64,000 bases of DNA from Escherichia phage IME178, in sequence record NC_104190.1; one strand, 5' to 3'. Within the stretch, counting starts at the first letter, position 1; each line of letters begins with the position of its first letter. This document shows, in pieces, positions 3,160-57,756 of the stretch. The notes under the pieces were generated by a model. It did not search any database. It was not told the origin of the DNA and saw only the letters and a list, made by a program, of their open reading frames with translations. The translations under genes were made by a program, and so were the position numbers.

Positions 3160-4014
3160 TTATACCGTAAAGGGGTATGCAATAGCGGGGTGATGTTCGT
3201 AACCACGAACAGTAAAATCATCCTTACTTACCCAGATCAATACATCCTCTAGAGTTCGGATATTTGGGTTGATTTCTAGAGTAGGAGGTGCAAAAGGTTC
3301 ACGATCGAATTGCTTATGCTCCATCAAAACATTATACTGATCCTCATAGATATGAAGATTGATAATCTTCTGGCGTGCAATTCCTGGTTTAAGGCCTGTA
3401 ATCTGTGCCATTAATGCTAGAAGCGTATAGCACTGAACCATGTTAAATACTTGGCCTAGCAGGAAGTCATTAGATCTCTGGAAAGAGTTCAGGTATAATG
3501 TATCTCCCAAAATAGAGAACTGATGAGTGTGCATACATGGACGTAAGCAACCCTTTGAGAACTCCCCCGGATTCCAGAACGTTAGAATTTCCCCACGATC
3601 ATCAATGCCCTTCTTCAGGTTATGGTAAATCTTGGCTAGCTGGTCAAACATAAGACCATCGGAATTAGTCCACTGACGTCCTTGAACACCATAGACTCGT
3701 CCCATATCATCCTCACCTTTACGGTATGGATTGTCTAGCCAAGCTAAGTTTTCATTTGCATTAGCATTCCATGTGTTAACACCAATAGCGCGGAATTGTG
3801 CTGCTGAATCATACCCACGTAGATACCCAATCATTTCCATTATTGCTTGTTTTGCAAACGCCTTACGGGTAGTAATAAGTGGAAATTCACCTGCACCTAC
3901 GTTAAAAGTAAAATCTGCGTCAATAATGGTGAGGCAACGAACCCCTGTTCTAGGATTCGTTACCCACTGACCTTCTGATAGAATACGTTTTCCAACTTCG
4001 ATATACTGATTCAT
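3160..4014 (-). CDS. thyA: thymidylate synthase
   Basis: 284 aa; ThyA-like N-terminus ([12 protein letters not shown]...) and conserved core segments. Confidence 0.9.
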
Positions 4015-13474: not shown

Positions 13475-13486
13475 ATATGTTCAATA

Positions 13487-13903
13487 ATGTATTCTCTAAA
13501 GAAGCTAACCCAGTTTTGGTTAACTTTTGGCGTACTCTCCCAGCTAGTGTATAATGAGGCTATTAACTCTTTGAAAATATGGTGTGAGAATAACGAAATC
13601 TCCTTTGCTTTTAAAGATGATATTGATGAGGCCCCCTGTATTGGTTTAATTGTGCAGGTAGAGGATGGCCTTGAAGAGATTGTGGGCTGGAAAGAGTTAG
13701 ACGAAATGGGCTTAGTTTTTGCGTTAAACTATAAGCTGTTTATGCCTGCTAAGCATCGCCTCGTTGTTAACTATAAAAATAGTGAATCTCCTGGTTTTCA
13801 GGTTAATGAACGTTATGGTTGGTCTTACTTACCGGAAGAAGTAAATGAGGGGATTCAGAAACTTCGACGTTTCGGGTATATGATCCCAGGTTTAACTGCT
13901 TAA
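13487..13903 (+). CDS. hypothetical protein, paralog 1 of tandem pair
   Basis: shares PCIG, EL..MGL..ALN and PGL segments with next ORF; ATG 13477 with RBS aaggtg is in another frame, so N-terminus uncertain. Confidence 0.45.
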   Translation: MYSLKKLTQFWLTFGVLSQLVYNEAINSLKIWCENNEISFAFKDDIDEAPCIGLIVQVEDGLEEIVGWKELDEMGLVFALNYKLFMPAKHRLVVNYKNSESPGFQVNERYGWSYLPEEVNEGIQKLRRFGYMIPGLTA

Positions 13904-20257: not shown

Positions 20258-21228
20258 ATGACTAATGTAAAAGACTTTATTAAACGCTGTCAAGAAGCAT
20301 ATTATCAAGGTATGTCTTTAATCTCTGACGAAGAATATGATCGTCTGATTAAAAGATTTCCATTAGAAGAAGAGATCGGGCCTAAGGGTGATATTCCACA
20401 TCTGTATCGTATGTATTCTTTACAGAAAGTTTATTATAATCGTGGAGATAAACCTCCGTTCAACCCGTTAGGTCAGGTAGAAACTGATAAGTTAGATGGT
20501 TGTGCGATTTCTCTGTTATATATTAATGGAGAATTTGTTCAAGCACTAACTCGTGGTAATGGTATTCTAGGGAATGATGTCACAAGCAACGTAAGATTGC
20601 TGAATATCCCTAAAAAGATTTCCCAAAAAGTACCTACTCAAATCACTGGTGAAGTTCTAATTACAAAAGAAGTAGAAAATAAACGTAACTTTGCCTCTGG
20701 TGCTATTAACCTCAAAGATAGCGATGATTTCGTACAACGTATTGGGGAAGGTGGTTTAATCTTCGTTGCATATGGTATCCAGTGTTCTGCTGAATCTGTA
20801 GGTATTACAGAAGCGTACTTAAAAGATATGCTCTGGCTGGAGAATGAGACTTCTTAACAGTTGTTAATGTGCGTTCCTTCTTTAAGTGGATTCCGACGGA
20901 TGGTAAAGTTGTTCGTATTAATGACAACAACAAATTCTTCCGTGAAGGCTGGACTAATAAATTTCCTCGTGGAGCATTCGCTATTAAAGAAGATGAAGAA
21001 GGCGAGATTACAACTCTTACTAAAGTTGAATGGCAGGTAGGGGCTTCTGGTAAAGTAACTCCAGTTGGTTATTTCGAATCGGTAATTATTGATGATGCTA
21101 CAATTGTTAAGGCGACTCTTAATAACGTTGATTATATTAACTCTCTTGATCTAGAGATCGGTTGCCAGATTCGAGTAATTCGTGCTGGTGGTGTAATCCC
21201 GTGCATAGTAGAGCGAGTATACGATTAA
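20258..21228 (+). CDS. lig: NAD-dependent DNA ligase, adenylation + OB-fold part (subunit A), frame-interrupted
   Basis: KxDG (DKLDG), [14 protein letters not shown]; OB-fold/motif IV segment [11 protein letters not shown]...[11 protein letters not shown] is in a different frame from 20869 (GTG); frame change lies in 20848..20854. Confidence 0.65.
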
Positions 21229-22979: not shown

Positions 22980-23012
22980 TAAGGGGAGGGGGCTATGCTC
23001 CTTCCCCTTTTT
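22980..23012 (+). terminator. terminator-like hairpin
   Basis: aaggggagg...ccttcccctt stem followed by TTTTT. Confidence 0.4.
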
Positions 23013-23045
23013 GCATTTAGAAGGCACGAAAGCGTGCAAAGGAGA

Positions 23046-24518
23046 ATGACCTTGTTTAACGTGCAAGCTGTAGTGTTGAAGATGCTTCTAGCTTCTGAAC
23101 AGAAGCAAATAGCATTGGAAACATTCTCAAAACTGCATAAAGATCATTTTAATGACGCTTTCTCCTCAATTTACCAAGCCGTCCAGAATTATTATAAAAA
23201 ATATAACACAATGCCGTCCATTGACGCACTGATGCTTGAAGCTAATAGGAACGCCCGCCTTTCTCAAGCTCTAGTCGTCTTAGCTAACACTCAAATTCCA
23301 GAAGTGAGCATGGAACAGGCACTTGAAGTCCTAGAGGCTGAATATACACAGGATTTATTCCTGAAGCTTCTAGAAACAGACGTGCTTCAAGATTTAACAA
23401 TGCTGGATCAGGGAGAAATTCTCAACCGAGTTGCCTCCCTTCACTTAAAATTAGAAGAGAAAGTAACGAATACTGGAAAAGTATTCAACGCAGATAACAT
23501 GCGTATTTTCCAGAGAGAAGAAGATACCAAACTGAACCTAATCGCTCTTGGTATTTGTAATGAGTTTGACGCTCAAATTGGTTTAGCTCGCACAGAAACG
23601 TTACTGCTTGGTGGTTGGCGTGGTACTGGTAAATCCATTATCTGTTCAAACATACAGGTTCAGCAATATTTGAATGGAGATATTGCTCCATACTTCTCAA
23701 TTGAGATGAAAGAACATGAAGTATTTAGACGTAATCTAGCCATGTTAGCTGGTGTATCCGCACTAGCAATGCGTAATAATACTCTAGAAGGTGCAGCTCT
23801 GCTGAGATTAGCCAGAACTAGAGCTAGAATGTTTAATGGCGGTGAAGAGCTTTTCGATAACTTCGTTAAACAGTACACAATGGCTAAGATGAGTGATTTC
23901 TACGATATGGAGAGTAAACTAATAGAAGGGTATGAACTACATACTCCTATGATTATCGTTTATGACCCTGAACTGTCCATTACAACAGTTGATGTAGAAT
24001 TAAATAAATTAGTTGCTAGATATGGTGATAAAGTTACAGTAGCTTTATTGGACTATATTAACCAAACCCGACTTCCAGACTCTAAAACCATTGATATGTA
24101 TGACTGGAAAGAACAGATGGTTGTTAGCTCGTCTTTCAAATCTATCTGCCAGAAACATAACGTGGCTGGCGTAGCTCCTTACCAGATCGATCAAGATGGT
24201 AGAACACGTATGTCAAAGGGTATTCTTGATTCCGCAGACATGGCTGCTAATCTTAATGCTGCAAAAGCTGATAATGGTCAAGGTGCTATTATGTTTGACT
24301 TCGTTAAGACTCGTTCTTCTGATAGCGTGAAGTTTATGCCTAAAATGAACTGGGAAACCTTGCGGATGGATAACACTACCAACCTAGCGATGGAAGATAT
24401 ATCTCAAATGGAAGCTGAGTTCGTTATCCCTATTGAGAAGGATAAGCCGGCTCAACCTAAACGTGCTAAGAAAGACAAAACCGAAAATTCAACAGGTGAA
24501 CAGGCCAGCGATATATGA
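23046..24518 (+). CDS. DnaB-like replicative helicase
   Basis: Walker A GGWRGTGKS, FSIEM (DnaB FSLEM-like), LDYINQTR; start set at ATG 23046 (RBS aaaggaga) instead of 22995. Confidence 0.7.
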   Translation: MTLFNVQAVVLKMLLASEQKQIALETFSKLHKDHFNDAFSSIYQAVQNYYKKYNTMPSIDALMLEANRNARLSQALVVLANTQIPEVSMEQALEVLEAEYTQDLFLKLLETDVLQDLTMLDQGEILNRVASLHLKLEEKVTNTGKVFNADNMRIFQREEDTKLNLIALGICNEFDAQIGLARTETLLLGGWRGTGKSIICSNIQVQQYLNGDIAPYFSIEMKEHEVFRRNLAMLAGVSALAMRNNTLEGAALLRLARTRARMFNGGEELFDNFVKQYTMAKMSDFYDMESKLIEGYELHTPMIIVYDPELSITTVDVELNKLVARYGDKVTVALLDYINQTRLPDSKTIDMYDWKEQMVVSSSFKSICQKHNVAGVAPYQIDQDGRTRMSKGILDSADMAANLNAAKADNGQGAIMFDFVKTRSSDSVKFMPKMNWETLRMDNTTNLAMEDISQMEAEFVIPIEKDKPAQPKRAKKDKTENSTGEQASDI

Positions 24519-25406
24519 GTAGAATAACAGAACTACTTGATCTGAAAGGCATTGAATATAAAGACACAGGTGGGGACATCCTCATCTGTTGTCTCAATCC
24601 AGATCATGACGATAAACACCCAAGTTTGCGTATTGATCCTGAAACAGGTATTATGCACTGCTTGAGTTGTGGCTTCGGTAAAGGTATACCGAGCATTTAC
24701 CATTATTTTAATGAGACTCAGTACCGACAGTCCCCAAGGCTATCGCAAGTACGTAAAAAGATTTCAGAGATTAGGAATGGGTCAACGAATCTTGCAATTC
24801 CTGAATCTGCTTACCTTTTCGAAGGTGATTTCCGAGGTATAAGTTCTAAGACCTTGAAGAAATATTTTGCTTTCCAACACCAAGCAGACTGGGAAGGCAG
24901 AATTGTATTCCCAATCACAGATGCTGTTGGACGCAATATCCTATTTTTGGGTCGTTCTATAAACAGTTCTGCCCCTCCTAAATACTTAGTAAAACCAAAA
25001 CAAGTTTCACCACCAATTTTTCCTGTACGATATAATACCCCAATTCTTATTCTAGTTGAAGGTATCTTTGATATGCTGAATCTAGAGGATAATGGTATAG
25101 ACTATGCTTCTTGTTGCTTCGGTACACATCAGTTTACTTCAGATAACATTGCAGATAAGTTTAGTCCGTATATTATTGCTGGTGTTAAAGTTGTTGTTAT
25201 CTTACTAGATAATGATGCTTCTGGTAATAAAGCTGCACAAGCACTGGCTAAGCTAATTCGTACAAAAAACGCGTTTAACACCTGTAGTTGCTAACTTTCT
25301 TCTGCCTGAAGGTAAAGACCCAGGTGACTTAAGTAAAGAAGAAATTGATATGTTAGCAAAACGTATTGAAATTTTAGTTGCTGAATCGCTTAAAGATTTG
25401 GTATAA
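24515..25406 (+). CDS. DnaG-type DNA primase (zinc finger + TOPRIM), frame-interrupted
   Basis: CHC2 zinc finger CCLNPDHDDKHPSLRID...HCLSCGFGKG; TOPRIM LLDNDASGNKAA; C-terminal VVANFLLPEGKDPGDL lies in +1 frame after A6 run 25263-25268. Confidence 0.7.
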
Positions 25407-25455
25407 TAGTCCTAAATAACTGAGGAGCTACTATGGAATATGTATATATATTTAT

Positions 25456-25764
25456 GTGGATGTTCCAGTGTATGATAGTATAACACACAAAGAGGTTAAA
25501 CTAGAGCGGTTTACAACACTGGAGTCCCTTAATAAACGAAAGAATTTCCATTTATTTGGTGATCCTAAATTACCTGCATCTTATATTTACTTTAAAGTAA
25601 AAGATACAGGTCAAGAGGTATACCTAACATATGATTGGGCTGTTGTAGAAAATACTGAGCAATCTATGAAAGCGCTAGATGCTTTTCTGCGTATAGATGA
25701 AGAATTTCGGGTACTAGAAAAGCAGCGCAATGAAATGCGTAAATTACTTCACACCTATAAATAG
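25456..25764 (+). CDS. hypothetical protein
   Basis: 102-aa ORF from GTG without RBS; a well-placed ATG 25433 (RBS tgaggag) is in another frame, so the start is uncertain. Confidence 0.4.
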   Translation: MDVPVYDSITHKEVKLERFTTLESLNKRKNFHLFGDPKLPASYIYFKVKDTGQEVYLTYDWAVVENTEQSMKALDAFLRIDEEFRVLEKQRNEMRKLLHTYK

Positions 25765-25767
25765 TAT

Positions 25768-25796
25768 TTGCTATTATCCCAATATTTTGATATAAT
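25768..25796 (+). promoter_or_regulatory. T5-type early promoter for DNA polymerase
   Basis: TTGCTA-17-TATAAT. Confidence 0.5.
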
Positions 25797-25857
25797 ATAT
25801 TGGTAAGTTAGAGAAGAAACACTGAAGTTATACTTACTTACCAAGAGGAGATTAAAT

Positions 25858-28425
25858 TTGAAAATCGCAGTAGTTGATAAAGCTCTAAATAACACTCGTT
25901 ATGATAAACATTTCCAGCTATACGGCGAGGAAGTTGATGTATTCCATATGTGTAACGAGAAGTTATCTGGTCGTTTGCTTAAAAAGCACATTACTATTGG
26001 AACACCAGAAAACCCATTTGATCCGAATGATTATGATTTTGTTATACTAGTAGGTGCTGAACCTTTCCTGTATTTCGCAGGTAAGAAAGGCATTGGTGAC
26101 TATACTGGTAAACGTGTAGAGTATAATGGATATGCTAACTGGATTGCGAGTATCAGCCCAGCCCAGTTACACTTTAAACCTGAAATGAAACCAGTTTTCG
26201 ATGCAACAGTAGAAAATATCCACGATATTATCAATGGTCGTGAGAAGGTTGCAAAAGCTGGTGATTATCGTCCTATTACTGACCCTGAGGAGGCAGAAGA
26301 ATATATCAAGATGGTGTATAATATGGTTATCGGACCTGTCGCATTCGACTCCGAAACCTCAGCACTATACTGTCGAGATGGTTATCTGCTTGGTGTTTCT
26401 ATGTCTCACCAAGAGTATCAGGGTGTGTATATCGATTCTGATTGTCTCACAGAGGTTGCAGTATATTATCTCCAGAAAATTCTGGACAGTGAAAACCACA
26501 CTATTGTTTTTCACAACTTGAAGTTCGATATGCACTTTTATAAGTACCATCTGGGGCTTACTTTTGATAAAGCGCATAAAGAACGCAGGCTCCATGATAC
26601 CATGTTGCAGCACTATGTTCTAGATGAGCGTCGTGGTACTCATGGCTTAAAATCTCTAGCTATGAAGTACACCGATATGGGTGACTATGACTTCGAACTA
26701 GATAAGTTTAAAGATGATTACTGCAAAGCACATAAAATTAAGAAAGAAGATTTCAGCTATGATCTGATTCCTTTTGATATTATGTGGCCATATGCTGCAA
26801 AAGATACAGATGCTACTCTACGTCTTCATAACTTCTTCTTACCAAAAATTGAGAAGAATGAAAAACTTTGCAGTCTGTATTATGATGTTCTAATGCCTGG
26901 TTGTGTATTTCTCCAGCGTGTTGAGGATCGTGGTGTACCTATTTCTATTGATCGTTTAAAAGAAGCTCAGTACCAGTTAACCCATAATCTGAATAAAGCT
27001 CGTGAAAAGCTGTATACTTATCCAGAAGTCGTTCAGCTAGAGAAAGATCAGAACGAAGCATTTAATCCTAACTCTGTTAAGCAGCTACGTGTTCTTCTGT
27101 TTGACTATGTTGGCTTAACTCCAACAGGTAAACTGACGGATACTGGAGCAGACTCTACAGATGCAGAAGCTCTGAACGAATTGTCTACGCAGCATCCAAT
27201 TGCTAAGACTCTACTAGAGATTCGTAAGCTGACTAAGCTGATCTCTACTTATGTTGAGAAAATTCTTCTGAGCATTGATGCAGATGGTTGCATTCGTACT
27301 GGCTTCCACGAACACATGACTACTTCTGGTCGTCTGAGTTCTTCTGGTAAACTGAACCTGCAACAGTTACCTCGTGATGAATCTATTATCAAGGGTTGTG
27401 TAGTAGCTCCTCCGGGGTACCGTGTAATCGCGTGGGACTTAACAACTGCGGAAGTTTATTATGCTGCTGTTCTATCTGGTGATAGAAATATGCAACAGGT
27501 ATTTATCAACATGAGAAATGAACCTGATAAATACCCGGACTTCCACTCTAACATCGCACACATGGTATTTAAGCTCCAATGCGAACCCCGTGATGTTAAA
27601 AAGCTGTTCCCAGCTTTGCGTCAAGCAGCTAAAGCAATCACCTTTGGTATTCTGTATGGTTCTGGCCCAGCTAAAGTAGCTCATTCTGTTAACGAAGCTC
27701 TTCTGGAACAGGCTGCTAAGACAGGCGAACCGTTTGTAGAATGTACGGTTGCAGATGCTAAAGAGTATATCGAAACTTACTTCGGTCAGTTCCCACAGCT
27801 TAAGCGTTGGATTGATAAGTGCCACGATCAGATCAAGAATCATGGATTTATCTATAGTCACTTTGGTCGTAAGCGTCGTCTGCACAATATCCACTCCGAA
27901 GACCGTGGTGTTCAGGGTGAGGAAATCCGTTCTGGATTTAACGCAATCATTCAGTCTGCTTCTTCTGATAGTCTCCTTTTAGGTGCTGTAGATGCAGATA
28001 ATGAGATCATTTCTCTTGGCCTAGAACAAGAGATGAAGATTGTTATGCTAGTTCACGACTCCGTAGTTGCTATTGTTCGTGAGGATTTGATCGACCAATA
28101 CAATGAAATCTTGATTCGTAATATTCAGAAAGACCGCGGTATTAGTATTCCTGGCTGTCCGATTGGTATTGATTCAGATTCTGAAGCTGGAGGTTCTCGC
28201 GACTACTCTTGTGGTAAGATGAAGAAACAGCACCCATCAATCGCTTGTATTGATGATGATGAATATACTCGTTATGTCAAGGGTGTATTACTTGACGCAG
28301 AATTCGAGTATAAGAAACTAGCTGCAATGGATAAAGAGCATCCAGATCATAGCAAATACAAGGATGATAAGTTTATTGCTGTATGTAAAGATTTGGATAA
28401 CGTGAGAAGGATTCTCGGTGCTTGA
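25858..28425 (+). CDS. DNA polymerase, family A (T5-type)
   Basis: 855 aa (the size I recall for T5 polymerase); conserved 3'-5' exo and Pol A segments (FDSETS, RQAAKAITFGILYG, HDS); TTG start after RBS agaggag. Confidence 0.9.
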   Translation: MKIAVVDKALNNTRYDKHFQLYGEEVDVFHMCNEKLSGRLLKKHITIGTPENPFDPNDYDFVILVGAEPFLYFAGKKGIGDYTGKRVEYNGYANWIASISPAQLHFKPEMKPVFDATVENIHDIINGREKVAKAGDYRPITDPEEAEEYIKMVYNMVIGPVAFDSETSALYCRDGYLLGVSMSHQEYQGVYIDSDCLTEVAVYYLQKILDSENHTIVFHNLKFDMHFYKYHLGLTFDKAHKERRLHDTMLQHYVLDERRGTHGLKSLAMKYTDMGDYDFELDKFKDDYCKAHKIKKEDFSYDLIPFDIMWPYAAKDTDATLRLHNFFLPKIEKNEKLCSLYYDVLMPGCVFLQRVEDRGVPISIDRLKEAQYQLTHNLNKAREKLYTYPEVVQLEKDQNEAFNPNSVKQLRVLLFDYVGLTPTGKLTDTGADSTDAEALNELSTQHPIAKTLLEIRKLTKLISTYVEKILLSIDADGCIRTGFHEHMTTSGRLSSSGKLNLQQLPRDESIIKGCVVAPPGYRVIAWDLTTAEVYYAAVLSGDRNMQQVFINMRNEPDKYPDFHSNIAHMVFKLQCEPRDVKKLFPALRQAAKAITFGILYGSGPAKVAHSVNEALLEQAAKTGEPFVECTVADAKEYIETYFGQFPQLKRWIDKCHDQIKNHGFIYSHFGRKRRLHNIHSEDRGVQGEEIRSGFNAIIQSASSDSLLLGAVDADNEIISLGLEQEMKIVMLVHDSVVAIVREDLIDQYNEILIRNIQKDRGISIPGCPIGIDSDSEAGGSRDYSCGKMKKQHPSIACIDDDEYTRYVKGVLLDAEFEYKKLAAMDKEHPDHSKYKDDKFIAVCKDLDNVRRILGA

Positions 28426-30276: not shown

Positions 30277-30348
30277 ATACACATAAATTTGAGAGAGAAA
30301 GTTTCGGATTGATAAGAAAGTCCGAAGCAGAAAAATAAAAAATTTTAG

Positions 30349-36229: not shown

Positions 36230-38377
36230 TTACTTACTTGCCTTTAATTCCGCAATCTCAGCTTCCATCGCTTCGATCCTCTGCATTAATACCTGCACAA
36301 CGTGCATGGTATCCAGAAGCATCGGCGTGGTGTCCAGCTCCTTCTGCTCCACAACCTCTCCTGGATTATTGCCAACATATTTGCGCGTCTTAACATATAA
36401 AGGCTCAACAACCTCTGCTTGCTGTGCAATCACGCCATGCCGAACTCGATTTTGTTCGTCATTGTCATAAATGAACTCTACAAATTCCAGCCCTTTAATA
36501 TTAGAGTATGATTTGTCAACTCCAACAGGGGCGATGCCGTGTTTTACACGTGAGTCAGAAGTACCATTTTTTGTATAACTAAAGTTCCCGTAATCAGTCG
36601 AACCATATATTTGACCATCAATATCAAAAAAGTAACGACAGAATTTTCCATTATCTCCACCGACCACCATGCAAGCTGTACCGAAGGCATTATTACCTGG
36701 TATGTACATATGGAGCCCTATCTTGGTGGGATATCCGTTGGGGCGATATCCACCAATAGAATAACCACGAACTAGTGTGTCTGAACCGCTAGCAATGGCT
36801 ACCCGATCCATGCCGTTGGTAGTCAGGTTGTCTATTCCAGCATCCGTAATGCCATTCCATGTGCCCATAGGCGTATTCATACGGAAGGTATTAATCTTAC
36901 CCGATTGGCGGAAGTCTGCCGTACCATCTTCGTAAAACTTATAAGAGTGCTTAGCGGAGCCCTCAGCCTCAATAATCGCAGCCCCCGAGGAGCCCCAGAT
37001 AGTATCAGAGTATAGACGAGCAAACCGCTTACCTGCTGGGTTGGAATATTCAGATACTACTTCACCACCACGAACGGAGGTATTCTGCGGAGGTGCGCTA
37101 CTATCTGCATTCTTAACACTCCATGATGTATTTGCTGCAACGAAACCACCCGACGCACGGATTACCCACACACCGACAAAGTTTCGTGTAAGAATTTCAT
37201 CATTTGATGTTCCGTAAATTGGACTTGAACGTGAGGCGTCAAAATTTAGTGTATTATAGCGCCCAGATAATGCAATATTTCCTGTACTTGGAATCGCATC
37301 CCCATCACCATTAGGAAAAATCGCATTATCAACAAAGAATGCACCACTAGCAGTAGAGCCAAATACCTGGGCGTAGCTAGTACTTGAGTAGCTAGGAACA
37401 GCAGCAGTAATATTAGGTGCAGCAGATTCAAATAGCTGGCCATTTGCACCACTATTTCCACCATCTCCACGACCATAAAGAGCGCGTATTGATCCCTCCT
37501 GCACCCCATTCTTATCTGGAACACGAAAAGTTGTTGTCCCATTTCCTGATGAGTACTTACCGCGCTGAAATTTATCAGCCAGCCATTTAGAATCATCTAT
37601 AGCACCCACCATTTGAGCGTAAGCCCAAAGCTCCGGCCAGTCAGCCCTGTTAAGAAGCTGCCCATCAGAAACTACCTCATAAGGTTGAATATACGCACGA
37701 CTATCGCGAAGGTGAAAATCACCTACACCATAGTTCATGACACCATTCATTGTGGGTCCTACTGTGCCAGTATTAATTTTGTTCTCCACCCAACGCTTAG
37801 TTACAGCATCATAATCATTAACGGGGTCTCCCGCAAGGGGAGTAGATCCAATAGGTCGCACATTTAGCCACGCAGCTGCGCGATCTGCTAAATCTGATAA
37901 ATTATTTTCAGTCAATAGGCTTTCGTCTTTTGTTGGCACATTATAACTTTGTCTAAAAGCTTCTTTTGATACTACTCCAGTACCTCCTTGTTCTATAGAA
38001 AGTGCAGTGGTTAAACCTGTTAAAGATTTAATAGTTGAGTTGGCACCATCCATGTCTATACTAGCAAATCTTGACCATGCAGTCCATGAATTGTAAAAAG
38101 ATCTACTATATATCTCATTACGATTATAAGGTAAGTAAATTTGAGTACAAGAAGTCGCTAAATTGCTTGCATTATTTTTTAAAACTAGTAATGTACCTGC
38201 AGCCGCAACAGGATAGTTAAGAGAAGTAGGAGAGTTAGCATTTTCAGATTGCCAATACTTTCCATACACACTCCCATCAAGTGTATTTAAATTTGTTCCT
38301 GTAGTAATTAAACCATATACAGGTAAAGCGGCTACATCAGTAGCCTTTAAGTTAATTTTATCAATTCTAAGAGCCAT
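36230..38377 (-). CDS. L-shaped tail fiber protein with C-terminal intramolecular chaperone domain
   Basis: 715 aa; Gly/Ser-rich fibrous body; C-terminus ...VQVLMQRIEAMEAEIAELKASK resembles the self-cleaving chaperone domain of T5 pb1-type fibers. Confidence 0.7.
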   Translation of the reverse strand: MALRIDKINLKATDVAALPVYGLITTGTNLNTLDGSVYGKYWQSENANSPTSLNYPVAAAGTLLVLKNNASNLATSCTQIYLPYNRNEIYSRSFYNSWTAWSRFASIDMDGANSTIKSLTGLTTALSIEQGGTGVVSKEAFRQSYNVPTKDESLLTENNLSDLADRAAAWLNVRPIGSTPLAGDPVNDYDAVTKRWVENKINTGTVGPTMNGVMNYGVGDFHLRDSRAYIQPYEVVSDGQLLNRADWPELWAYAQMVGAIDDSKWLADKFQRGKYSSGNGTTTFRVPDKNGVQEGSIRALYGRGDGGNSGANGQLFESAAPNITAAVPSYSSTSYAQVFGSTASGAFFVDNAIFPNGDGDAIPSTGNIALSGRYNTLNFDASRSSPIYGTSNDEILTRNFVGVWVIRASGGFVAANTSWSVKNADSSAPPQNTSVRGGEVVSEYSNPAGKRFARLYSDTIWGSSGAAIIEAEGSAKHSYKFYEDGTADFRQSGKINTFRMNTPMGTWNGITDAGIDNLTTNGMDRVAIASGSDTLVRGYSIGGYRPNGYPTKIGLHMYIPGNNAFGTACMVVGGDNGKFCRYFFDIDGQIYGSTDYGNFSYTKNGTSDSRVKHGIAPVGVDKSYSNIKGLEFVEFIYDNDEQNRVRHGVIAQQAEVVEPLYVKTRKYVGNNPGEVVEQKELDTTPMLLDTMHVVQVLMQRIEAMEAEIAELKASK

Positions 38378-38386
38378 TTTAATTCC

Positions 38387-38692
38387 TCATGCCCACATGC
38401 GAACAGGTGTTTCTGGGTTTACTATAAATTTATCTAGTATAGAGAGATCAAAATCATCAATATTCATAATACGCAGATTAACGTGATATCCTTCTTGCAC
38501 TACATACTCAATATCCTCTATATTTTGGTACTCTGTTAAGGGTTTTACAGGCTGACTAATAGTACCTATAAAATCAATACTGACATTTTCACAGTATAAA
38601 CTACCTGTTTCTTCATCTAAACTAAAGCCAAATTTTATCAAATTAATTTTCATTTCATCAGCATTAGTAAATTTTAGATATAAATCTTTCAT
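38387..38692 (-). CDS. hypothetical protein between the two tail-fiber genes
   Basis: 101-aa ORF, co-oriented. Confidence 0.4.
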   Translation of the reverse strand: MKDLYLKFTNADEMKINLIKFGFSLDEETGSLYCENVSIDFIGTISQPVKPLTEYQNIEDIEYVVQEGYHVNLRIMNIDDFDLSILDKFIVNPETPVRMWA

Positions 38693-38738
38693 TATAGAAT
38701 CCTTAATTTTATGGGAGCATTATATAATGCTCCTGTAC

Positions 38739-40928
38739 TTACCGTAAGCCATTAATCTGATCATTATTTAAGGCCCTATACCATACTCGGAAATTCTTAA
38801 TATGATATACAAATTTAGAAGGGGTAGGAGATGGTGATGCACCTAACCTAGACGGAATACCTGTCAAACTCACGGGAGTACTAGTAGATTTAGCAGTTTT
38901 ACCATTAAAATAGTTGCTTATTTCATTTCCAACTATTTTTTGAGCATAGGTCATAGGAGGTAGACTTTCTATATCTGGAATAGCTAAGGTTGGCCCTGTA
39001 CTAGATCTATATGTTCTTATAGTGGCATTATCATCGCTATCACAGCGGCAGATAATGTCATACCTAGAACCTCTTACTTGCATAACTTCTACATAACTAG
39101 TATAAGGTCGTACTTTACAATTAAATTCAAAAGATACTGTGCGCTCAAAGTAGTCTGCTAGGGTTCTATAGCCGGCATTATCTGGTATACACCACCATTC
39201 ATCTGCTGTTCTAGTAGTAGTGGTATTAGTACTATTACGGATGTAAGAAGTTGGAGCTATGCCTTCCTCAACCTGTATACCCCAAATGTAGAAACCAGAA
39301 ACACCATCCCCCTCATAGACAGCAGTAGTAGTAGTTTTAGCCATCTGGAGTCTAAATATAGTGCTTTGACTTGCAGTGGCTGCAAAAGAAATCCAAATTC
39401 TATATATACCTCCAGTTAATCTCTCATACCCCCCTCTAATATTACTAGCAGAACCAGTTGTTACAACAGTTTCATTTTTAATATCAAAAAACATACCAGC
39501 AGTTGTACCAGAAGCTACACGTAGATATACTAAACGATTTGCAGTATCATCTTTAACGTAGGCAGAGTAACAATAAAAAGTATCAGCAGTCAAAGATATT
39601 CCTTTATCGTTGCAGTAGTGCTCGCTGTTACTGGTACTCTCGGTAAATTTAGTCATCAACATTTCGCCGGTAGGACAAGCCGAAGCATTAGGGGTTGTAA
39701 TAACTAGATTACCACCAGTAATTGCTTCTGAATTAGTATATAAATTAGTACACTGAGACTCCATTAATAAACCTTGCTTTTCAAATCTAGGTTCATTAAT
39801 ATCTGCAAAACACATTTTACCACTTTTATCTATATAACTGGCGGTAGTTGAGCGAGTAAAATTTGCAGATTTTGTTGGCAATTCCAGAGTTACATCATTA
39901 ATTGTTGCTAAATCGTAAGGGGCCATACCAGATAATAATCTCATATCATCAGTTAAAGGTACCCAAACATCCGGATAGGGGACAGGTTCATATATAATAA
40001 TACTAGCAGCAGAAGCAGCGGCGGCAGCTTCAGAAGCTTTAGCATTAATTTCAGAAGCTTTAGCATTAGTTTCAGATGTTTTAGCATTAGTTTCTGATGT
40101 TTTAGCATTAGTTTCTGATGTTTTAGCAGCATTTTTACTTGCTAAAGCATCTGCGGCACTTCCAGCAGCTGCATTTTTACTTGCTAATGCGTTAGTTTCG
40201 CTAGTAGCAGCATTCGTCTCAGATGTTTTAGCATTAGTTTCAGAAGTTTTTGCTGCTGTTTGTGATTTAGCAGCAGCATTTTTACTTGCTAATGCATTAG
40301 TTTCGCTAGCAGCAGCATTCGTAGCCGAATTAGCTGCAGCTAATTCGGAAGCTTTAGCATTAGTTTCAGAAGTCTTAGCGTTAGTTTCAGAAATTTTTGC
40401 TGCTGTTTGTGAAGCTGCTGCTGCAGTTTTACTTGCTAATGCATTAGCTTCACTAGTAGCAGCATTCGTCTCGGAGGCTTTAGCTTTGGTTTCACTAGTC
40501 TTTGCATTAGTCTCAGAGGTTTTTGCATTAGTCTCAGAGGTTTTAGCCTTGGTTTCACTAGTCTTTGCATTAGTCTCAGAGGTTTTAGCTGCAGCTGCTG
40601 ATTCTGCAGATTTAGTAGCTGATGCAGCAGACTTAGTAGCGGACGTAGCAGATTGAGTAGCAGAAGCTTCAGAAGCTTCAGCAGAAATAGCAGCTTCCTG
40701 TTCAGAGTTCTTAGCATTAAGCTCTGAAGTCTTAGCAGCTATTTCGGAGTCTTTTGCAGCTGCAGCAGACTTAGCTGCAGCCTCAATAGATGATACTAAC
40801 TCACTTGCAGTAATAGAGCTAATAGAGTTACCAAGAGTTACTGTATATCTAGGAAATTTACTAGCAGTAGCTTTAGTATCATCAATATTTAATATCTGTT
40901 GTACAATAATCTTAGTAATTACTGCCAT
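38739..40928 (-). CDS. tail fiber protein with Ala-rich heptad-repeat shaft
   Basis: 729 aa; long array of SETNAKT-type heptads then a globular C-terminal region. Confidence 0.6.
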   Translation of the reverse strand: MAVITKIIVQQILNIDDTKATASKFPRYTVTLGNSISSITASELVSSIEAAAKSAAAAKDSEIAAKTSELNAKNSEQEAAISAEASEASATQSATSATKSAASATKSAESAAAAKTSETNAKTSETKAKTSETNAKTSETNAKTSETKAKASETNAATSEANALASKTAAAASQTAAKISETNAKTSETNAKASELAAANSATNAAASETNALASKNAAAKSQTAAKTSETNAKTSETNAATSETNALASKNAAAGSAADALASKNAAKTSETNAKTSETNAKTSETNAKASEINAKASEAAAAASAASIIIYEPVPYPDVWVPLTDDMRLLSGMAPYDLATINDVTLELPTKSANFTRSTTASYIDKSGKMCFADINEPRFEKQGLLMESQCTNLYTNSEAITGGNLVITTPNASACPTGEMLMTKFTESTSNSEHYCNDKGISLTADTFYCYSAYVKDDTANRLVYLRVASGTTAGMFFDIKNETVVTTGSASNIRGGYERLTGGIYRIWISFAATASQSTIFRLQMAKTTTTAVYEGDGVSGFYIWGIQVEEGIAPTSYIRNSTNTTTTRTADEWWCIPDNAGYRTLADYFERTVSFEFNCKVRPYTSYVEVMQVRGSRYDIICRCDSDDNATIRTYRSSTGPTLAIPDIESLPPMTYAQKIVGNEISNYFNGKTAKSTSTPVSLTGIPSRLGASPSPTPSKFVYHIKNFRVWYRALNNDQINGLR
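40037..40796. repeat. degenerate 21-bp tandem repeat array inside tail fiber gene
   Basis: unit gttttagcattagtttcagat and variants repeated >20 times; encodes (S/A)ETNAKT heptads on minus strand. Confidence 0.8.
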
Positions 40929-41354: not shown

Positions 41355-43428
41355 TTACCTTATGTGAATATATCCATTTACTAGATCTATCTTCATTTTG
41401 TACGCAGCTTCTGGATTTCCTGATAATGCTGCATTTCTATCATAAATAGTGTTAACCCCTATCTGGGATAAGAAAGCATTACCTGCCACTATTTTATCCG
41501 CAGTAATAGTGCCATTAACTACCATATTACCATGCAGTACCATGGCCGGGTTGATCCAACCATAGCCATTCCATTGTCTAGTAAATGCTGTCTGCGGAGC
41601 ACCACTATTAAATTGAGTTAGCACATCATATTTAACAGGAGGGGAGCCAAAGTTACTTTGGAAGAATGCATTAGCTTGGTTATCATCCCACCCGCCTAGC
41701 CCAGCTATTCCAACGGAATACATGCCAGGACCCCTTTGACCATCTGCACCAATCGTACCTTCAGTACCGCTCCATTGAACTACATCAGACCAGCTAGTAC
41801 CTTCTAATAGCTTATTAGTAACAGGATCTAGAGTACCAGTAGTAGCGTAGATATTCTGAGTCATATCAGTACGATTAGGAGGTGTTTTAGACCAACCAGG
41901 GGGTGGATAATCCTGTTCTAAGGGCTTAGCAGGTAGATTCTTACCTAGTTTGTAAACAAATACTGTTTGCTTACCCTGCATCCCAGTACCAATATCTACG
42001 TCTCCATTAGGAGTACCAATAACAACTCCACTAGAAATACGAAGAGTATCGCCATCATAGCGTATCCACTGAGTAGCATTACCTATATCTAACTTTGGCT
42101 TAGCAGAAGTGTTATCCATTCCCATCCAGATACCAGATTTTGTATCCCCCCAAGTTTTACCCTGAGTATATATTGCAGGGTTATCTTGGCCAGTTAGATT
42201 GGTCATTACAAAGTTAGCAGCATTGATAGTTTTAGTTATAACACTACCATCAACGTTAACTATCTTTTTAACCGGATCAAAAGATATTGGTGCTTTTCCT
42301 TCAGCATCTAGAAGACCTATATTAATAGCACCGGTAGCGGCATCAATTAAAAAATGTTTGTTTCCAAGTAGATCCATCTTTGATCTTACCCTTAATATAC
42401 GCATAGTTTACTTCAATACCCGTTTCATTAACAAAACTATTGTCAAGAGGAGTATCCTCATTTAGTGTAAAAGTCTGTACTGCAGAATCTGTAACATCTT
42501 GAGCATCTGGTCCCCATGCTATAGAAGAGACTTTAAATTTATGCTCAATTTTCCACGGAAACGATATAATAGTTGCCGCTTGTGCAGCACCTACGTTAAT
42601 TTTTTGAGCTTTAGTCCATCCAGTTTTTTTGAATTCTACTGAATCTATATAAGAAACAACAAATTCGCGAACGTTAGCGCCAGCTCCTCTATACCATTCC
42701 CATTGTACACGGAGATCATATCTTTCTTTACCATCAGCAATCCTTGCAGCTTTGAAAGTAATGTTGTTAGGAGCAGTAGGAGGTACAAAGTTATACTCTA
42801 CAGTAAGAACTTTGGAAAATTCAAAGTATCCAGAAGAGTCTACAGTTACACCATCTGGCATGGTAACTTGCCCAGATATGCGTACTTTGTAATCCCCAAC
42901 AGGAACACCCCCAAATCTAATAGTGGGAGATAGTGGACCTATATAATACTTTACCCACGGGCTATTTGAAGGTTGAGTACTTTTTAACTCAATAGTACAA
43001 TAACTAGCTTCTCCTGTAGTCTCTATAACTACTATAGGGGCACCTACACCCACATCTACTGGATCAGCCTCTGATCTAGCGGCAGTAATAGTAGGTTTTC
43101 TCTTAGTACTAAAGGTAGTTTTATTGGATAAGTTTATGCCAATTTTAGCCTCTAATAGCTCAGAGTCTATAATAGAGTCATAGAAAGCCCCTTGAACCTC
43201 ATAAGAAGTTGAAGGGGTTAGATTATTAATCATTACAAAGAAAGTATCTATACCGGTATAGTCACGTCTATCAATACTTTCTCCTAACTTTAACCAAAAG
43301 GATCTACCAATAACGTCATAATCAGTATATATAGAGTGCTGGACATACGCCATTGTATATCCAGTCATTATACTATTTAAGACCATTTTGGCTGGTGCAT
43401 TATTCGAAATCATTAAATGGATGCCCAC
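41355..43428 (-). CDS. baseplate/tail tip protein (T5 pb4-like), frame-interrupted
   Basis: two ORFs (361 + 349 aa) overlapping at 42343-42404 with an A6 run 42346-42351; combined size ~pb4; Ig/FnIII-like beta-rich sequence. Confidence 0.5.
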
Positions 43429-46262
43429 TCCACAGACTGTTCCCCCTCATCTCCTTCTGCTCTAATACGAAAATATAGTTTTCTATTGATCCCTAGAGCA
43501 TCACTGTTATGGAGAGCAAAATCTGCCTTATTATACATTAATAAATAGTCATAAGTATACTGATTTTCAATACGTACACTTCTTAGCATTCTATTCTGGG
43601 AGTCATAGATTTCCAGAGTATAGAATATACTTTCTATTATATCTTCTTCTGGTATCCTATCCCAAGCTAGTTTTACATCTGGGCCTACAAATTCAGTTAC
43701 ATCCCTGGAAGCCGTATTAGTTACCCTAAAATTAGATACTACACTTAGGTTTTTAGCAGAGTTAAGTTCTATAGATAATGTTACTGGAGAACTTCTTCTA
43801 CCATTTATATCCACAGCCCTTATTTCAAATATCGCTAAGCCTGCAGGCTCTCCAATTATCTCTTGGATCATGCGTTCATTGGGATTTGTTTCTAGTTGCT
43901 GCACAATATAAGGTTCAGCATGACCGGAATGCACGATAGAGTAATAAACTACGTTATTAGTTAAGCTTGGAAGCCAAGATAACTCACCATTTTTTCCTAT
44001 AGAACCAACTAAACCACCAGGTGTAGGGGTATATTTAAAATCCCTAGGAGGAAGAACGTTGTTACTAATATCTGGTATATCATTACCACTATTATCTACT
44101 TGATCAGAGTTGATAAATACATCTTCCCCATACTCCTGTAGGGTAACATTTATCTTTCCTTCCCTAGAGTTTTCGACTTCATCTACTAAAAAGTACTTCT
44201 TATCCCATCCGTAACGGTCGTAGGTAAATGCAATAGCATCGTTAGGCTCAATACCAATGAATTGATATGGTAAAGAAAATGAGAGGGTTCTAGAATACCT
44301 AGATTTCTTAAGTTCTCTGTCTGCAAAACTTCTAGCAGTATAGTAGTTAGTTATATTTGCAAAAGATAACTGTAATTTTTGTCTAAATTTTTATCTTGCT
44401 CTTTATATTTAGAGTTGTAAAAGGTAATAGAGTTAGTTTTCCAGCTAAGAGCTGGGTCTACGATGGATGCTTGAACTGAGTTGAATTTATTTCTACCAGT
44501 AGTATCTGATAGCTCTAAATCACCATAAGTATCCAGAAAATTAATCTCTAATGGAGTATTAGAATATTTTTCTACAGTAATCCTATATTGACCAGATAAG
44601 TTGTTAATAGCCCCACCGTAGGACTCTAGCAAACCTTGCACGTTTTTTAAATACTGATTCAGATGTGTCTAGAATAGTATTCATTTGTACTATTTGTCTA
44701 TTTTCTGCTAATGGATCAGTCCACCCAACATATCTCCAGTATGGCTGCCAGGATACTTGGTAAGATTCATCTATAATATCTAAGATAGCAGCTTCTTGTA
44801 CCAATTGTTGGAGAGGGAACTGATCAATAGCAATGTTTGCACCATACCTATCTGAAGTTAAGTAGTCAAGTGTTTGCCAAATACCATTTAAACTAGTACT
44901 ATTAGCAGTTACTCTACCATCAGAATGATAGATTTTTATCTTCTTACCCTGAATCTCAGCACTAACTTCTGGAATCTCAGTTCTATTTTCATTAATAGTA
45001 AAGCGTACTACCGCGTATGCAGTATCTAATAGTTTATATCTAGCATCCCAGTACTCAGGTCCATTGCCGTTCATATTTTGGAGATAGAACCCACGTTCCT
45101 TCGCTATATTTACTAATACTTCAGAAGCCGTTTGATCAGCTTTTCCATGATAAGTCCAAATCCTTATATCACCATTACCATCGTTATACTTATATTCCTG
45201 GCCATGCACAGAAGGACTACTAGAAGATATTCCTGATGCTATTCTTTGCATGGTGTCTCCGGCTACTTTTTTAACACCGAAACAGGTTCTAGCAGAACTA
45301 TCATTAGAGTCCATACAAATCATGGGGTTATCCCCAAAGGAAAAGTCAAGAAAACCGTCTATCTCTCCTTCAGCAAAAGCATATACTACATAAACTATAT
45401 TAGGATTGTGTAATTCCGTATCCGCAAAAATAGGTATTCCCGGTATTTTCTGTACACCATAAACTACTGGTATATACTTAGCAGCAAGGTTAAAATCTAT
45501 ATCTACTTCTTTAGTAACAGTCTCATAATACTTTTTAAGACTATAACTTCTAGATAGTCCAAATAGCTTTTTCTTAGACTTTAGCTTGTATCTTTCTTCC
45601 TGTACCTGATACTTTGCTAGAATAGAGATACTTTTATTGGCGTGAAAGAAACCGTAGTCTTCTTGGTACTCAAGTCTTTTAGCCCCGTTAGATGGAACTA
45701 ATTGTCCTGCTACAACCTCAAGCCCTCTATGAGAAGCATCATCAGTAAATCTACCGTTAACCCTATCAAAATCATAGAATTGGTTAGAACAATTCCAAGT
45801 AATTGTAGAGGTTCCAACCCCAGAAATACTAATGTTGTCCTTAATACCTCCACCAGTAATTCTCCCTCTAAAGTATAATAAAGGGCCATTTGTGTCTGGG
45901 TCTACAGGTAAAATAGAACCATCCTCTGTAATAATTGCTTGGTGGATTGATACTAGTCTATCTAAAAAGGACACCCCATTCTGCACTAGTTTCAGTACTT
46001 CATCCTGCGCTGTACCTGTAATAGTAAAAGATAGACTGCCAATAGATAAATCTCTGTTTTGTTTATGTGTGCTAATAGACTTAACTTTACCGGCCTGGTA
46101 CAAAATACCATTATATAGTACATCTCTAAAATAGTCAGTTAAGTAAATAAAAGCAGTACTAGTACCAGTAGAGCCGGGTAATTCTAGAGAAATTAGACTA
46201 GCAGTTTTTATTCTGCTATTATTTTTTAAGTAGTTTCTAGCACTATCTAATATTTTTTTCAT
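43413..46262 (-). CDS. baseplate hub protein (T5 pb3-like), frame-interrupted at two sites
   Basis: three co-linear reading-frame segments (552 aa, ~85 aa, ~327 aa) summing to ~960 aa, close to T5 pb3 size; C-terminal FnIII-like repeats. Confidence 0.5.
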
Positions 46263-46872
46263 AGACTTTCCCGTAAATTTAATGAGATGTTGGAGTATGT
46301 TCCGTTATTATTTAGTGTAGATCCAAAAGCATCACCATTCATGAGTTTTGTTCTAAATAGTATTCCATTAAATACTGGCTTCTCCGCTCCAGTAGTAGTT
46401 ATAAATAAATCAGGGTATAAGTTTATGGACCATGTATTACCTGATTTGTTAAATGATGTTATTTTATATACTTTTGGGTGGTTAGATAGCTTAAATAGAT
46501 CCCCTGGTTTTGGAGTACCTGTAAGAAGCCCTTTTGTATCCATAGTTATATTAGAACCCTTCTGTCCAGCAGGTATACTTACTAGACTAGTATTACCTCT
46601 AACTCTAAAAGCTTCGTATTGGGGTAATATAACGTCTATATAACCACCAGTCCTTTTGTATTCTAGAATAAAAGCATCTAGAACACTATATTCATCTGGA
46701 AATAATTCTGGATAAGAAATATTTATACCCCAGTATTGAGCAGATACCTTACTTCGTTAACTTTACCATTTGGTAACTCATCACGAATTACTGGGTCATT
46801 GTCAATCAGGTTAACACTTTCGAATCCTAAGCCTGAAAGTTCTGGATTCGTGTATGGGTCTGGTAATCTCAT
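46259..46872 (-). CDS. distal tail protein (T5 pb9-like), frame-interrupted
   Basis: ATG 46872 with RBS aaagaggagaaa; frame changes near the C4 run 46727-46730; the two segments sum to ~204 aa. Confidence 0.45.
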
Positions 46873-50675: not shown

Positions 50676-50709
50676 CAATAAAAAGGCTCTGGGCAAATCA
50701 CCCAGAGCC
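50676..50709 (-). terminator. terminator-like hairpin immediately upstream of tape measure start
   Basis: ggctctggg-caaatca-cccagagcc then TTTTTATTGGGAAAAATAAAAC-ATG on minus strand. Confidence 0.5.
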
Positions 50710-51579: not shown

Positions 51580-52476
51580 TTTTTAATTTCTCCAAAGAAA
51601 TCTATTCTCACTGGGTCTGAAGAAGCAGTAGGTATAATATCCCACTCAACTCTATACACATCTGAGAGATCTAGGCGTTTTGTAATACGTGCTGAAGGAA
51701 AATCTATAGAAATATTATTATTTCTTATATTTAAAGGTACATCTGTCTCCGGTTCGATATTGTAAACCATATCTCCTGCAAAACGTTTTTAAGTAATATA
51801 GAGAAATGGTTGCCGAAGCATTCATTTCATTTACATAAGCTCTTTTATTATTATAAATTTTATTTATATCAAAAACACTCTTATCTTCTCTCCAAGAGCA
51901 CTGCTGCTGGAAAGATAAGGAGGCAGAGATAAGACCGGGTAAGATGCTACCATTAGTAGAAGCTATTACTGGGCTATAAGACATTACTTCACCCTGTATA
52001 ATAGAAGCTGCTTCTCTATAGGTAGATACTTCTGAGAATTTCCCAGACTCAATACCAACATTAAGAATTGGTATGTTCTTATCTAAAGAAAAATCTACCG
52101 TAGATACATAACAGTTTTCAAAATATACACAGTTACTATCTTTGTTTACTATATAGATATTGAATATAATAGGTTCAATATTACTACTATATAGTGGGAG
52201 TAAGAAAGTATTACCTTTTCTATCAAAACCTAACCATTCAAAGAAGTTAGCCTCTGTAAGAGTATTACTGAAATTTACGGCTAGAGAGATAGAAGAGGGG
52301 GTTTGAGCATTTATAATAGAGTCTGCATAGTTAGTTCTACGATGAACAGTCCTACGAAGAGTCTTGAATTCCTCGTAGGAAGTCTGTATATCATAGTTTG
52401 ATAGGGCATCAAAATGAAATGCCCTACCATCATACTCAACTATAACTTTTGACTCTCTCATTAGAGAGTAGTACAT
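51576..52476 (-). CDS. tail protein, frame-interrupted
   Basis: 252-aa ORF has an implausible C-terminal tail; downstream frame (64-aa ORF 51576..51770) gives a sensible continuation; switch at A5/T4 run near 51780-51795. Confidence 0.4.
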
Positions 52477-54390: not shown

Positions 54391-55159
54391 TTAGGTTCCT
54401 TGATTAACCTTGATTTTATATCTAGAGTGAATCAGGTCTCTTGCAGCTTTTGCTATAGCCTCACCAATAAGTTTTTGGGGGTTTCTAGCGCCTGGGTAAG
54501 GTCGTAGAGATAATCTTTGATATGTAGATACTGCTGGATTAAATACAGAATATGGACGTACCATATAATTATACGTCACGTTTAATTCAGGAGCACCTTT
54601 ACTAGTCTCTGCATCTCTAAGCATAACATCCTTAATTTTCAGAGAATTTGCAAACCTGCCAGTTCTAAATTTTAATGGCGCTCCTGTCTTTTTCATATCC
54701 TTTATTAAGTACTCTTTAGCAACTATCTCTAATATAACCTTCATATTGCTATTTGATACAAAACGTCCGGAAGCACCTGTTACTGCACCTGAGTATCCAT
54801 CCTCTACGTCTCTAGGATCCCCAAAGTTTACCTGTACTCTGCCTGTAGAACGTTTTTTTACCTACAGAGGATTTTTTACCCGCGGTTGCTTGTATTAAGT
54901 TCTCTAGAGCACCTAAATCCCCCGAAAGATCTAAACTAGAGGATACTGCTTTTAGTATAGAGGCTGTTCTAACATCAAGAAGATCTTGTGATACGGGTTT
55001 TGAAAACTTAAAAGATACTTGAGCAACAGTACCATCTCTGGTAGGATCTTTTAACCCTGTCTCAACAGAATACACAACAGTATTCTTATTATTTTCAGAT
55101 CGTCCTGCAGTATCTAGCTGCTCTTTAATAATTTGTTTAGCTAGATCGGAAAGAGACAT
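54391..55159 (-). CDS. head-tail joining protein, frame-interrupted
   Basis: 115-aa and 117-aa ORFs are co-linear; frame change at T7 run 54823-54829. Confidence 0.4.
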
Positions 55160-57124: not shown

Positions 57125-57756
57125 TTATTCTTTAACGTAGCCTAAAGCTATCGCAAGTTTTTCTAGTTCAGAAAGATTACGTTCTTGAGCTGGGACAGCT
57201 TTAGAACTTATTGCAGTAAAAGATTTACGCCATTCAGTGTAATCATGACCATTCATGCTCTTAGCGAGATTGAATGTTGAGTCCTGATTACAAGGTACAG
57301 AAACTACCGAACTTCGTATAGTTCTAAATCTTTAATAATAAATATATCAGTAGCTTCATCCCACTCTGCATCTAGGCAGCGGAATCCGATACTAAAAGTT
57401 TTCAGTACACCGTTTCTAATTAGTGAAAAGATAGCCGGATCAGAACTTTCATAGATCTCGCATTCGATTTCGAGACCCATTTCAGTAGGGTTAAGATCAA
57501 TACACTTGCCGATTGGACGACGATGGTCGTGTCCGAAAAGAATAATCGGGTTTTTCATATAGTTAGCAAGTGCATTAGATGTTTTCCATGCCGAAGCAGG
57601 AATTACATCACCAGCACGATCTTTACTAATTGTATTAGCGAATCCACGGATCTTTACAACACCTTCTTTGGATTCGCTATCAATAGATTTAATATAAGCA
57701 TCTAAATGAACCGGTGCTGATTTTAACTTGTTATAGTCAATAGCAGCTTGTGTCAT
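57125..57756 (-). CDS. prohead protease (HK97/U35 family), frame-interrupted
   Basis: PIILFGHDHRRPIGK and LKTFSIGF (catalytic His/Ser context); 150-aa ORF stops at 57304 but a -1 frame continues ~57 codons to a stop 17 nt before capsid ATG; total ~208 aa. Confidence 0.6.

Follow-up and report, generated by a model that had tools for sequence, protein, structure and literature searches.

The window, a 64,000-nucleotide stretch (64 kb; G+C content, 38.9%) from the sequence record of Escherichia phage IME178 (NC_104190.1), is a segment of a Tequintavirus (T5-like) genome. Its replication genes lie in the order found in T5: a DnaB-like replicative helicase (22995 to 24518, plus strand; 507 amino acids [aa], intact), a primase, a small gene, and an 855-aa DNA polymerase (25858 to 28425). 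The helicase stop codon and the primase ATG at 24515 share bases (ATGA, 24515 to 24518), and from this ATG an open reading frame (ORF) extends, as written, along the plus strand to 25294. According to both sequence reading and the ORF list, this frame ends at a TAA (25292 to 25294) with the C terminus ...LIRTKNAFNTCSC*, and in its 259-aa product the first 251 residues are authentic, whereas the last 8 (NAFNTCSC) are read out of frame. The break is caused by one extra A in a run of exactly six A residues (A6; 25264 to 25269, plus strand), which numbers five (A5) in relatives. In the +1 frame, a TAA at 25254 to 25256 is followed by a stretch that is open from 25257, reads FVQKTRLTPVVANFLLPEGKDPGDLSKEEIDMLAKRIEILVAESLKDLV, and closes with a TAA at 25404 to 25406, the authentic primase stop. 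This stretch (25257 to 25406, plus strand) carries the last 45 residues of the primase (TRLTPVVANFLLPEGKDPGDL...KDLV); its translation reads ...TRLTPVVANFLLPEGKDPGDLSKEEIDMLAKRIEILVAESLKDLV. A first-pass annotation had described the primase as split at the A6 run, with the zinc finger and the TOPRIM DxD motif in one frame up to 25294 and the C-terminal TOPRIM segment in the +1 frame, which is open from 25257, and the same reading and ORF list confirm this layout. Removal of one A from the run indeed restores a single primase, as had been proposed, although its length is 296 aa by our count rather than the approximately 297 aa given originally.

The primases of the relatives SA001 and Bf23 were aligned to the window by tblastn. 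The SA001 protein matched in two pieces, residues 1 to 251 in frame 2 (99.6% identity) and residues 251 to 296 in frame 3 (97.8% identity), in agreement with the +1 open stretch, and the Bf23 protein gave an identical split. Judged by these alignments, the two-frame arrangement is not a product of chance. Another candidate was independent expression of the C-terminal piece. The +1 frame has its first start codon at the ATG for the Met in EEIDML, downstream of the acidic motif LPEGKDPGD. There is no start codon 5′ of that motif in this frame, and the motif therefore could not be produced on its own; this candidate was rejected.

The 259-aa ORF contains most of the domains of a DnaG-type primase. 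A CHC2 zinc ribbon (CCLNPDH...HCLSC; Pfam PF01807, Zn_ribbon_DnaG) occupies residues 4 to 58 (24524 to 24688, plus strand; E value 1.4e-6; 28.5 bits against a cutoff of 24.9), the N-terminal position expected for this class, and the N-terminal subdomain of the DnaG catalytic core (DNAG_N, PF08275) scores 28.0 bits in the same ORF against a cutoff of 26. The TOPRIM domain (25046 to 25328, plus strand), delimited by Pfam Toprim_2/3/4 and by alignment to the DnaG structures 2au3, 5vaz, and 1eqn, has the frame break inside it. Its Glu (E182 in LVEG) and its DxD motif (D232 and D234 in LDNDASG) lie upstream of the break, and its third acidic motif lies downstream. The latter, LPEGKDPGD (25302 to 25328, plus strand), was assigned by the structure alignment, and we take it to be the third acidic, metal-binding TOPRIM motif of DnaG. 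The 259-aa product stops before this motif and loses it, whereas all three motifs are present once one A is removed; accordingly, Toprim_2 is matched over profile positions 1 to 70 of 88 in the 259-aa ORF and over positions 1 to 86 of 88 in the repaired protein. Bacterial DnaG cores (Aquifex 2au3, Pseudomonas 5vaz, and Escherichia coli 1eqn/1dd9) align with phage residues 126 to 277 (E values from 3e-11 to 1e-6), an alignment that covers LVEG, the DxD motif, and LPEGxDP and in which LPEGYDPDE, LPEGEDPDS, and LPDGEDPDT of Aquifex, Pseudomonas, and E. coli, respectively, are paired with the phage LPEGKDPGD. Relative to these bacterial enzymes, the phage primase is much shorter (296 aa), lacks the C-terminal helicase-binding domain, and shows low overall similarity.

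Much closer counterparts were found among T5-like phages. The primases of T5 (D6/T5p119, AAU05258.1), Bf23 (pri, WLW40726.1), and SA001 (QKE54264.1) share the domain order of zinc ribbon, primase core, and TOPRIM, and they are encoded directly after a DnaB-like helicase and before the DNA polymerase, as in the window. In the alignment with intact T5-family primases that had been suggested as a check, the repaired protein shares 99% identity with each of them over all 296 aligned columns. With high identity over the full length and the same place between helicase and polymerase, the gene is, on comparative grounds, an ordinary, already known DnaG-type primase of a T5-like phage, orthologous to T5 D6/T5p119. 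The difference from T5, Bf23, and SA001 is the replacement of A5 by A6, which puts the last 45 residues out of frame. The primase coding sequence is 891 nucleotides (nt) long in SA001, Bf23, and Stp1, and likewise in T5; an alignment of the run with SA001, Bf23, and Stp1 shows a single difference, A5 in all three against A6 in the window. The intact A5 relatives, with their contiguous 296-aa frame, thus support the earlier description of a T5-family primase split by one A too many.

We then asked how often each run length occurs elsewhere. A 36-mer containing A6 was absent from all 50,697 phage records searched, whereas the corresponding A5 35-mer was found in 239 of them, including T5. Similarly, an A6 25-mer was absent from IMG/VR contigs, 20 of which carry the A5 24-mer, and it was absent from metagenome contigs as well. 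A 19-mer scan of reference genomes for A6 returned just three unrelated chance matches, in alphaproteobacterial metagenome-assembled genomes. At the protein level, we queried phage records with a 60-aa segment beginning 15 residues before the junction and required at least 80% coverage. In 607 of the 608 records, the segment was read without a change of frame, each match listed being one aligned piece, and the junction-spanning matches included Klebsiella, Proteus, and Vibrio phages at 36 to 65% identity. Absence of the second segment from orthologs had been named as the observation that would speak against the split; on the evidence of these alignments, the segment is instead universally present and contiguous in orthologs. 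The A6 frame break is unique to the window sequence.

The window has many relatives. The 1.1 kb around the break matches 442 phage records at 90 to 99% identity, and the surrounding 24 kb matches phage records at about 96 to 97%. The top identity for the full primase query among phage records was 98.7%, and an exact-product look-up found no identical product on record for either the 259-aa ORF or the window polymerase. The receptor-binding protein was found only on metagenomic contigs, which are approximately 96 to 97% identical to the window and thus no closer than its GenBank relatives.

The primase is not the only interrupted gene. Many 1-nt indels were listed in a whole-window alignment to SA001, and about 11 frame-breaking events were found across the 64 kb in 10 genes (the primase and nine others), 9 of the 11 being 1-nt events in A/T tracts. 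By tblastn with SA001 proteins, 9 of 61 matched genes are split between frames in the window; in the same test applied to Bf23 DNA as a control, none of 66 genes was split. Bf23 proteins gave the same break coordinates in the window as SA001 proteins, and in local three-way alignments SA001 and Bf23 agree with each other against the window at the break sites. On the plus strand, besides the A5-to-A6 change in the primase at 25269, NAD-dependent DNA ligase subunit A (ligA; 20258 to 21225) is broken at 20849 to 20850 by an AA-to-A change at 20850 and reads 199 aa as written against 323 aa in the intact homolog. The remaining genes with noted products lie on the minus strand. Three of them, encoding the straight fiber (pb4/D17), the baseplate hub, and the distal tail protein, fall between 41358 and 46872 and are broken relative to both references: the straight fiber by a 1-nt insertion at 42354 (356 versus 685 aa), the hub by two breaks, T6 to T5 at 44382 and T5 to T6 at 44648 (552 versus 949 aa), and the distal tail protein by AA to A at 46752 (49 versus 204 aa). 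Farther along are the frame-broken baseplate tube gene (51588 to 52476; T4 to T5 at 51786, relative to SA001 only at the DNA level), tail completion protein gene (54394 to 55159; T6 to T7 at 54853; 115 versus 255 aa), and prohead protease gene (57128 to 57756; AAA to AA at 57310; 150 versus 210 aa). The same type of change also occurs between genes, with A5 to A6 at 30337 and A6 to A5 at 50680 relative to both SA001 and Bf23. Every single-base change specific to the window falls within an A or T tract.

Two further genes carry dinucleotide changes. A 142-aa hypothetical gene (13477 to 13900, plus strand) is missing CC at 13548 (−2), which is not a simple homopolymer change, and reads 25 aa. 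The 109-aa gene after the primase (25433 to 25764, plus strand) has an extra TA at 25447 within a (TA)n tract (25441 to 25448) just 3′ of its ATG (25433); its first frame stops after 16 codons, and a 102-aa ORF beginning with GTG at 25456 remains. The extra TA is also present in Salmonella phage Stp1 and may be either a genuine polymorphism or an error that recurs. The 109-aa gene is missing from T5.

We consider a wrong homopolymer length in the deposited sequence to be the best explanation of the split primase, with a probability of roughly 0.86 given the comparisons above. Under this explanation, the extra A at 25264 to 25269 would be a miscounted homopolymer, introduced by flow-based sequencing, by unpolished long reads, or by a consensus of low coverage, and the phage itself would most likely have A5 and make a normal 296-aa primase. 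The window shows what such errors would be expected to leave behind: multiple ±1 indels that are specific to this record, lie in mononucleotide runs, and interrupt otherwise conserved genes. In 454 assemblies, A/T-biased homopolymer errors create artificial frameshifts that can affect at least 20% of genes in low-GC genomes (PMC3277595). Like assemblies with 454, Ion Torrent, or unpolished long-read errors, the window combines many ±1 changes in A/T runs with a sizeable share of frameshifted genes (PMC3277595). Downstream of the primase break there is no sign of decay, residues 251 to 296 being 97.8% identical to SA001. We infer that the frame breaks of the window are errors, because a phage without full-length hub, distal tail protein, protease, ligase A, and primase all at once could not have been propagated and sequenced; a phage with all of the listed truncations could not form particles and would not be viable. 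Two indels in the window depart from the pattern of homopolymer-length errors, being dinucleotide changes (−2 at 13548 and +TA at 25447). Since these two are not in homopolymers and the +TA is common to Stp1, some of the indels in the window could be real. It seems best not to regard the primase split itself as a genuine feature.

An unlikely alternative is that a genuine recent mutation added the A and that the sequenced template was a defective genome or a minority or mixed one. Polymerases commonly generate real mutations by slipping on homopolymers, the undecayed segment downstream of the run is as compatible with a very recent event as with an error, and the nearby +TA common to Stp1 indicates that some variation in the length of simple repeats within this group may be genuine. 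The mutant primase would lack the third acidic TOPRIM motif and would probably be inactive; with no start codon ahead of the motif in the +1 frame, separate expression could not supply it. This explanation also requires simultaneous truncation of the hub, straight fiber, distal tail, baseplate tube, tail completion, protease, and ligase A products, and the broken junction occurs in none of the 608 related records.

Recoding at the A run is far less probable still. Here, +1 slippage of tRNA-Lys on AAA_A (25265 to 25268), or the dropping of one A by RNA polymerase, would yield full-length primase, with the 259-aa protein as a second product alongside it. If tRNA-Lys slipped by +1 from the AAA at 25265 to 25267 onto the AAA at 25266 to 25268, the exact wild-type ...TKTRL... 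would be restored, and a moderately stable hairpin is possible downstream (−21.4 kcal/mol; z = −1.9). That hairpin, however, begins 18 nt 3′ of the run, which is poor spacing, is only marginally better than shuffled sequences, and is unchanged in the A5 relatives that need no shift. Nor do the other features of the site suit the required direction. The zero-frame A_AAA_AAC is a −1 heptamer, yet the shift needed is +1, and the −1 frame is a dead end (CGC GTT TAA, 25270 to 25278) with a stop codon at 25276 to 25278 after two codons. The zero-frame codon following Lys is an ordinary AAC, neither a stop nor a rare codon, and sequence reading revealed no Shine-Dalgarno-like stimulator upstream of A6. 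A slippery motif and stimulators fitting a +1 shift, as a programmed frameshift would have, are thus not found here.

The comparison with E. coli dnaX, in which a programmed −1 frameshift takes place at A AAA AAG, is instructive in this respect. The A_AAA_AAC of the window has the form of a classical −1 slippery heptamer and to that extent resembles the dnaX site. Unlike in dnaX, the −1 frame of the window is open for just two codons, and it is the +1 frame that carries the rest of the primase; moreover, the site has neither an upstream Shine-Dalgarno sequence nor a well-spaced hairpin and is absent from all relatives. Efficient transcriptional slippage is known from A or T runs of about nine or more, and the A6 run is shorter than these. 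The shift site is not conserved, all relatives being in frame with A5, and neither a conserved site nor a conserved two-frame arrangement accompanies the run (no records with A6, 239 with A5, and 607 of 608 junctions in one frame). Ten further breaks in the window would require equal special pleading. No Rfam match was found in 24000 to 26500, and a literature search on T5 primase and frameshifting returned nothing relevant. Highly improbable, finally, is a real A6 in a viable phage that obtains low-level full-length primase through spontaneous +1 slippage of tRNA-Lys, or through slippage of RNA polymerase, on the A run; if true, this would be a natural example of leaky frameshifting that sustains a replication gene.

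The value of attributing the split to a homopolymer error is mainly one of quality control, given that 64 kb of T5-like sequence contain about eleven indels that break reading frames. Calls of a split primase, ligase A, hub, protease, or other gene in this record should not be taken as evidence of pseudogenes, split genes, or recoding events, and before comparative use the record needs to be polished. A real A6 would be no more than a modest curiosity, bearing on leaky frameshifting or on how far truncation of a TOPRIM domain is tolerated.

Several other differences from relatives were observed in the window. Thymidylate synthase (3160 to 4014, minus strand) has a full-length PF00303 match and is only about 30% identical to SA001 ThyA, while the genes flanking it are 98 to 99% identical to SA001; by this pattern of identity, it looks like an allele replacement. 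Three HNH endonuclease genes of SA001 (at about 2444, 5700, and 17930) are absent, as is the HNH gene that lies between helicase and primase in T5, slur09, GSP044, and SP15, in place of which the window has the ATGA overlap. The L-shaped tail fiber region (36230 to 40928, minus strand) is divergent from the references and contains three ORFs (729, 101, and 715 aa) against a single 1265-aa gene in Bf23, which may reflect either its true architecture or further frame breaks; the 715-aa ORF carries a Peptidase_S74 chaperone domain.
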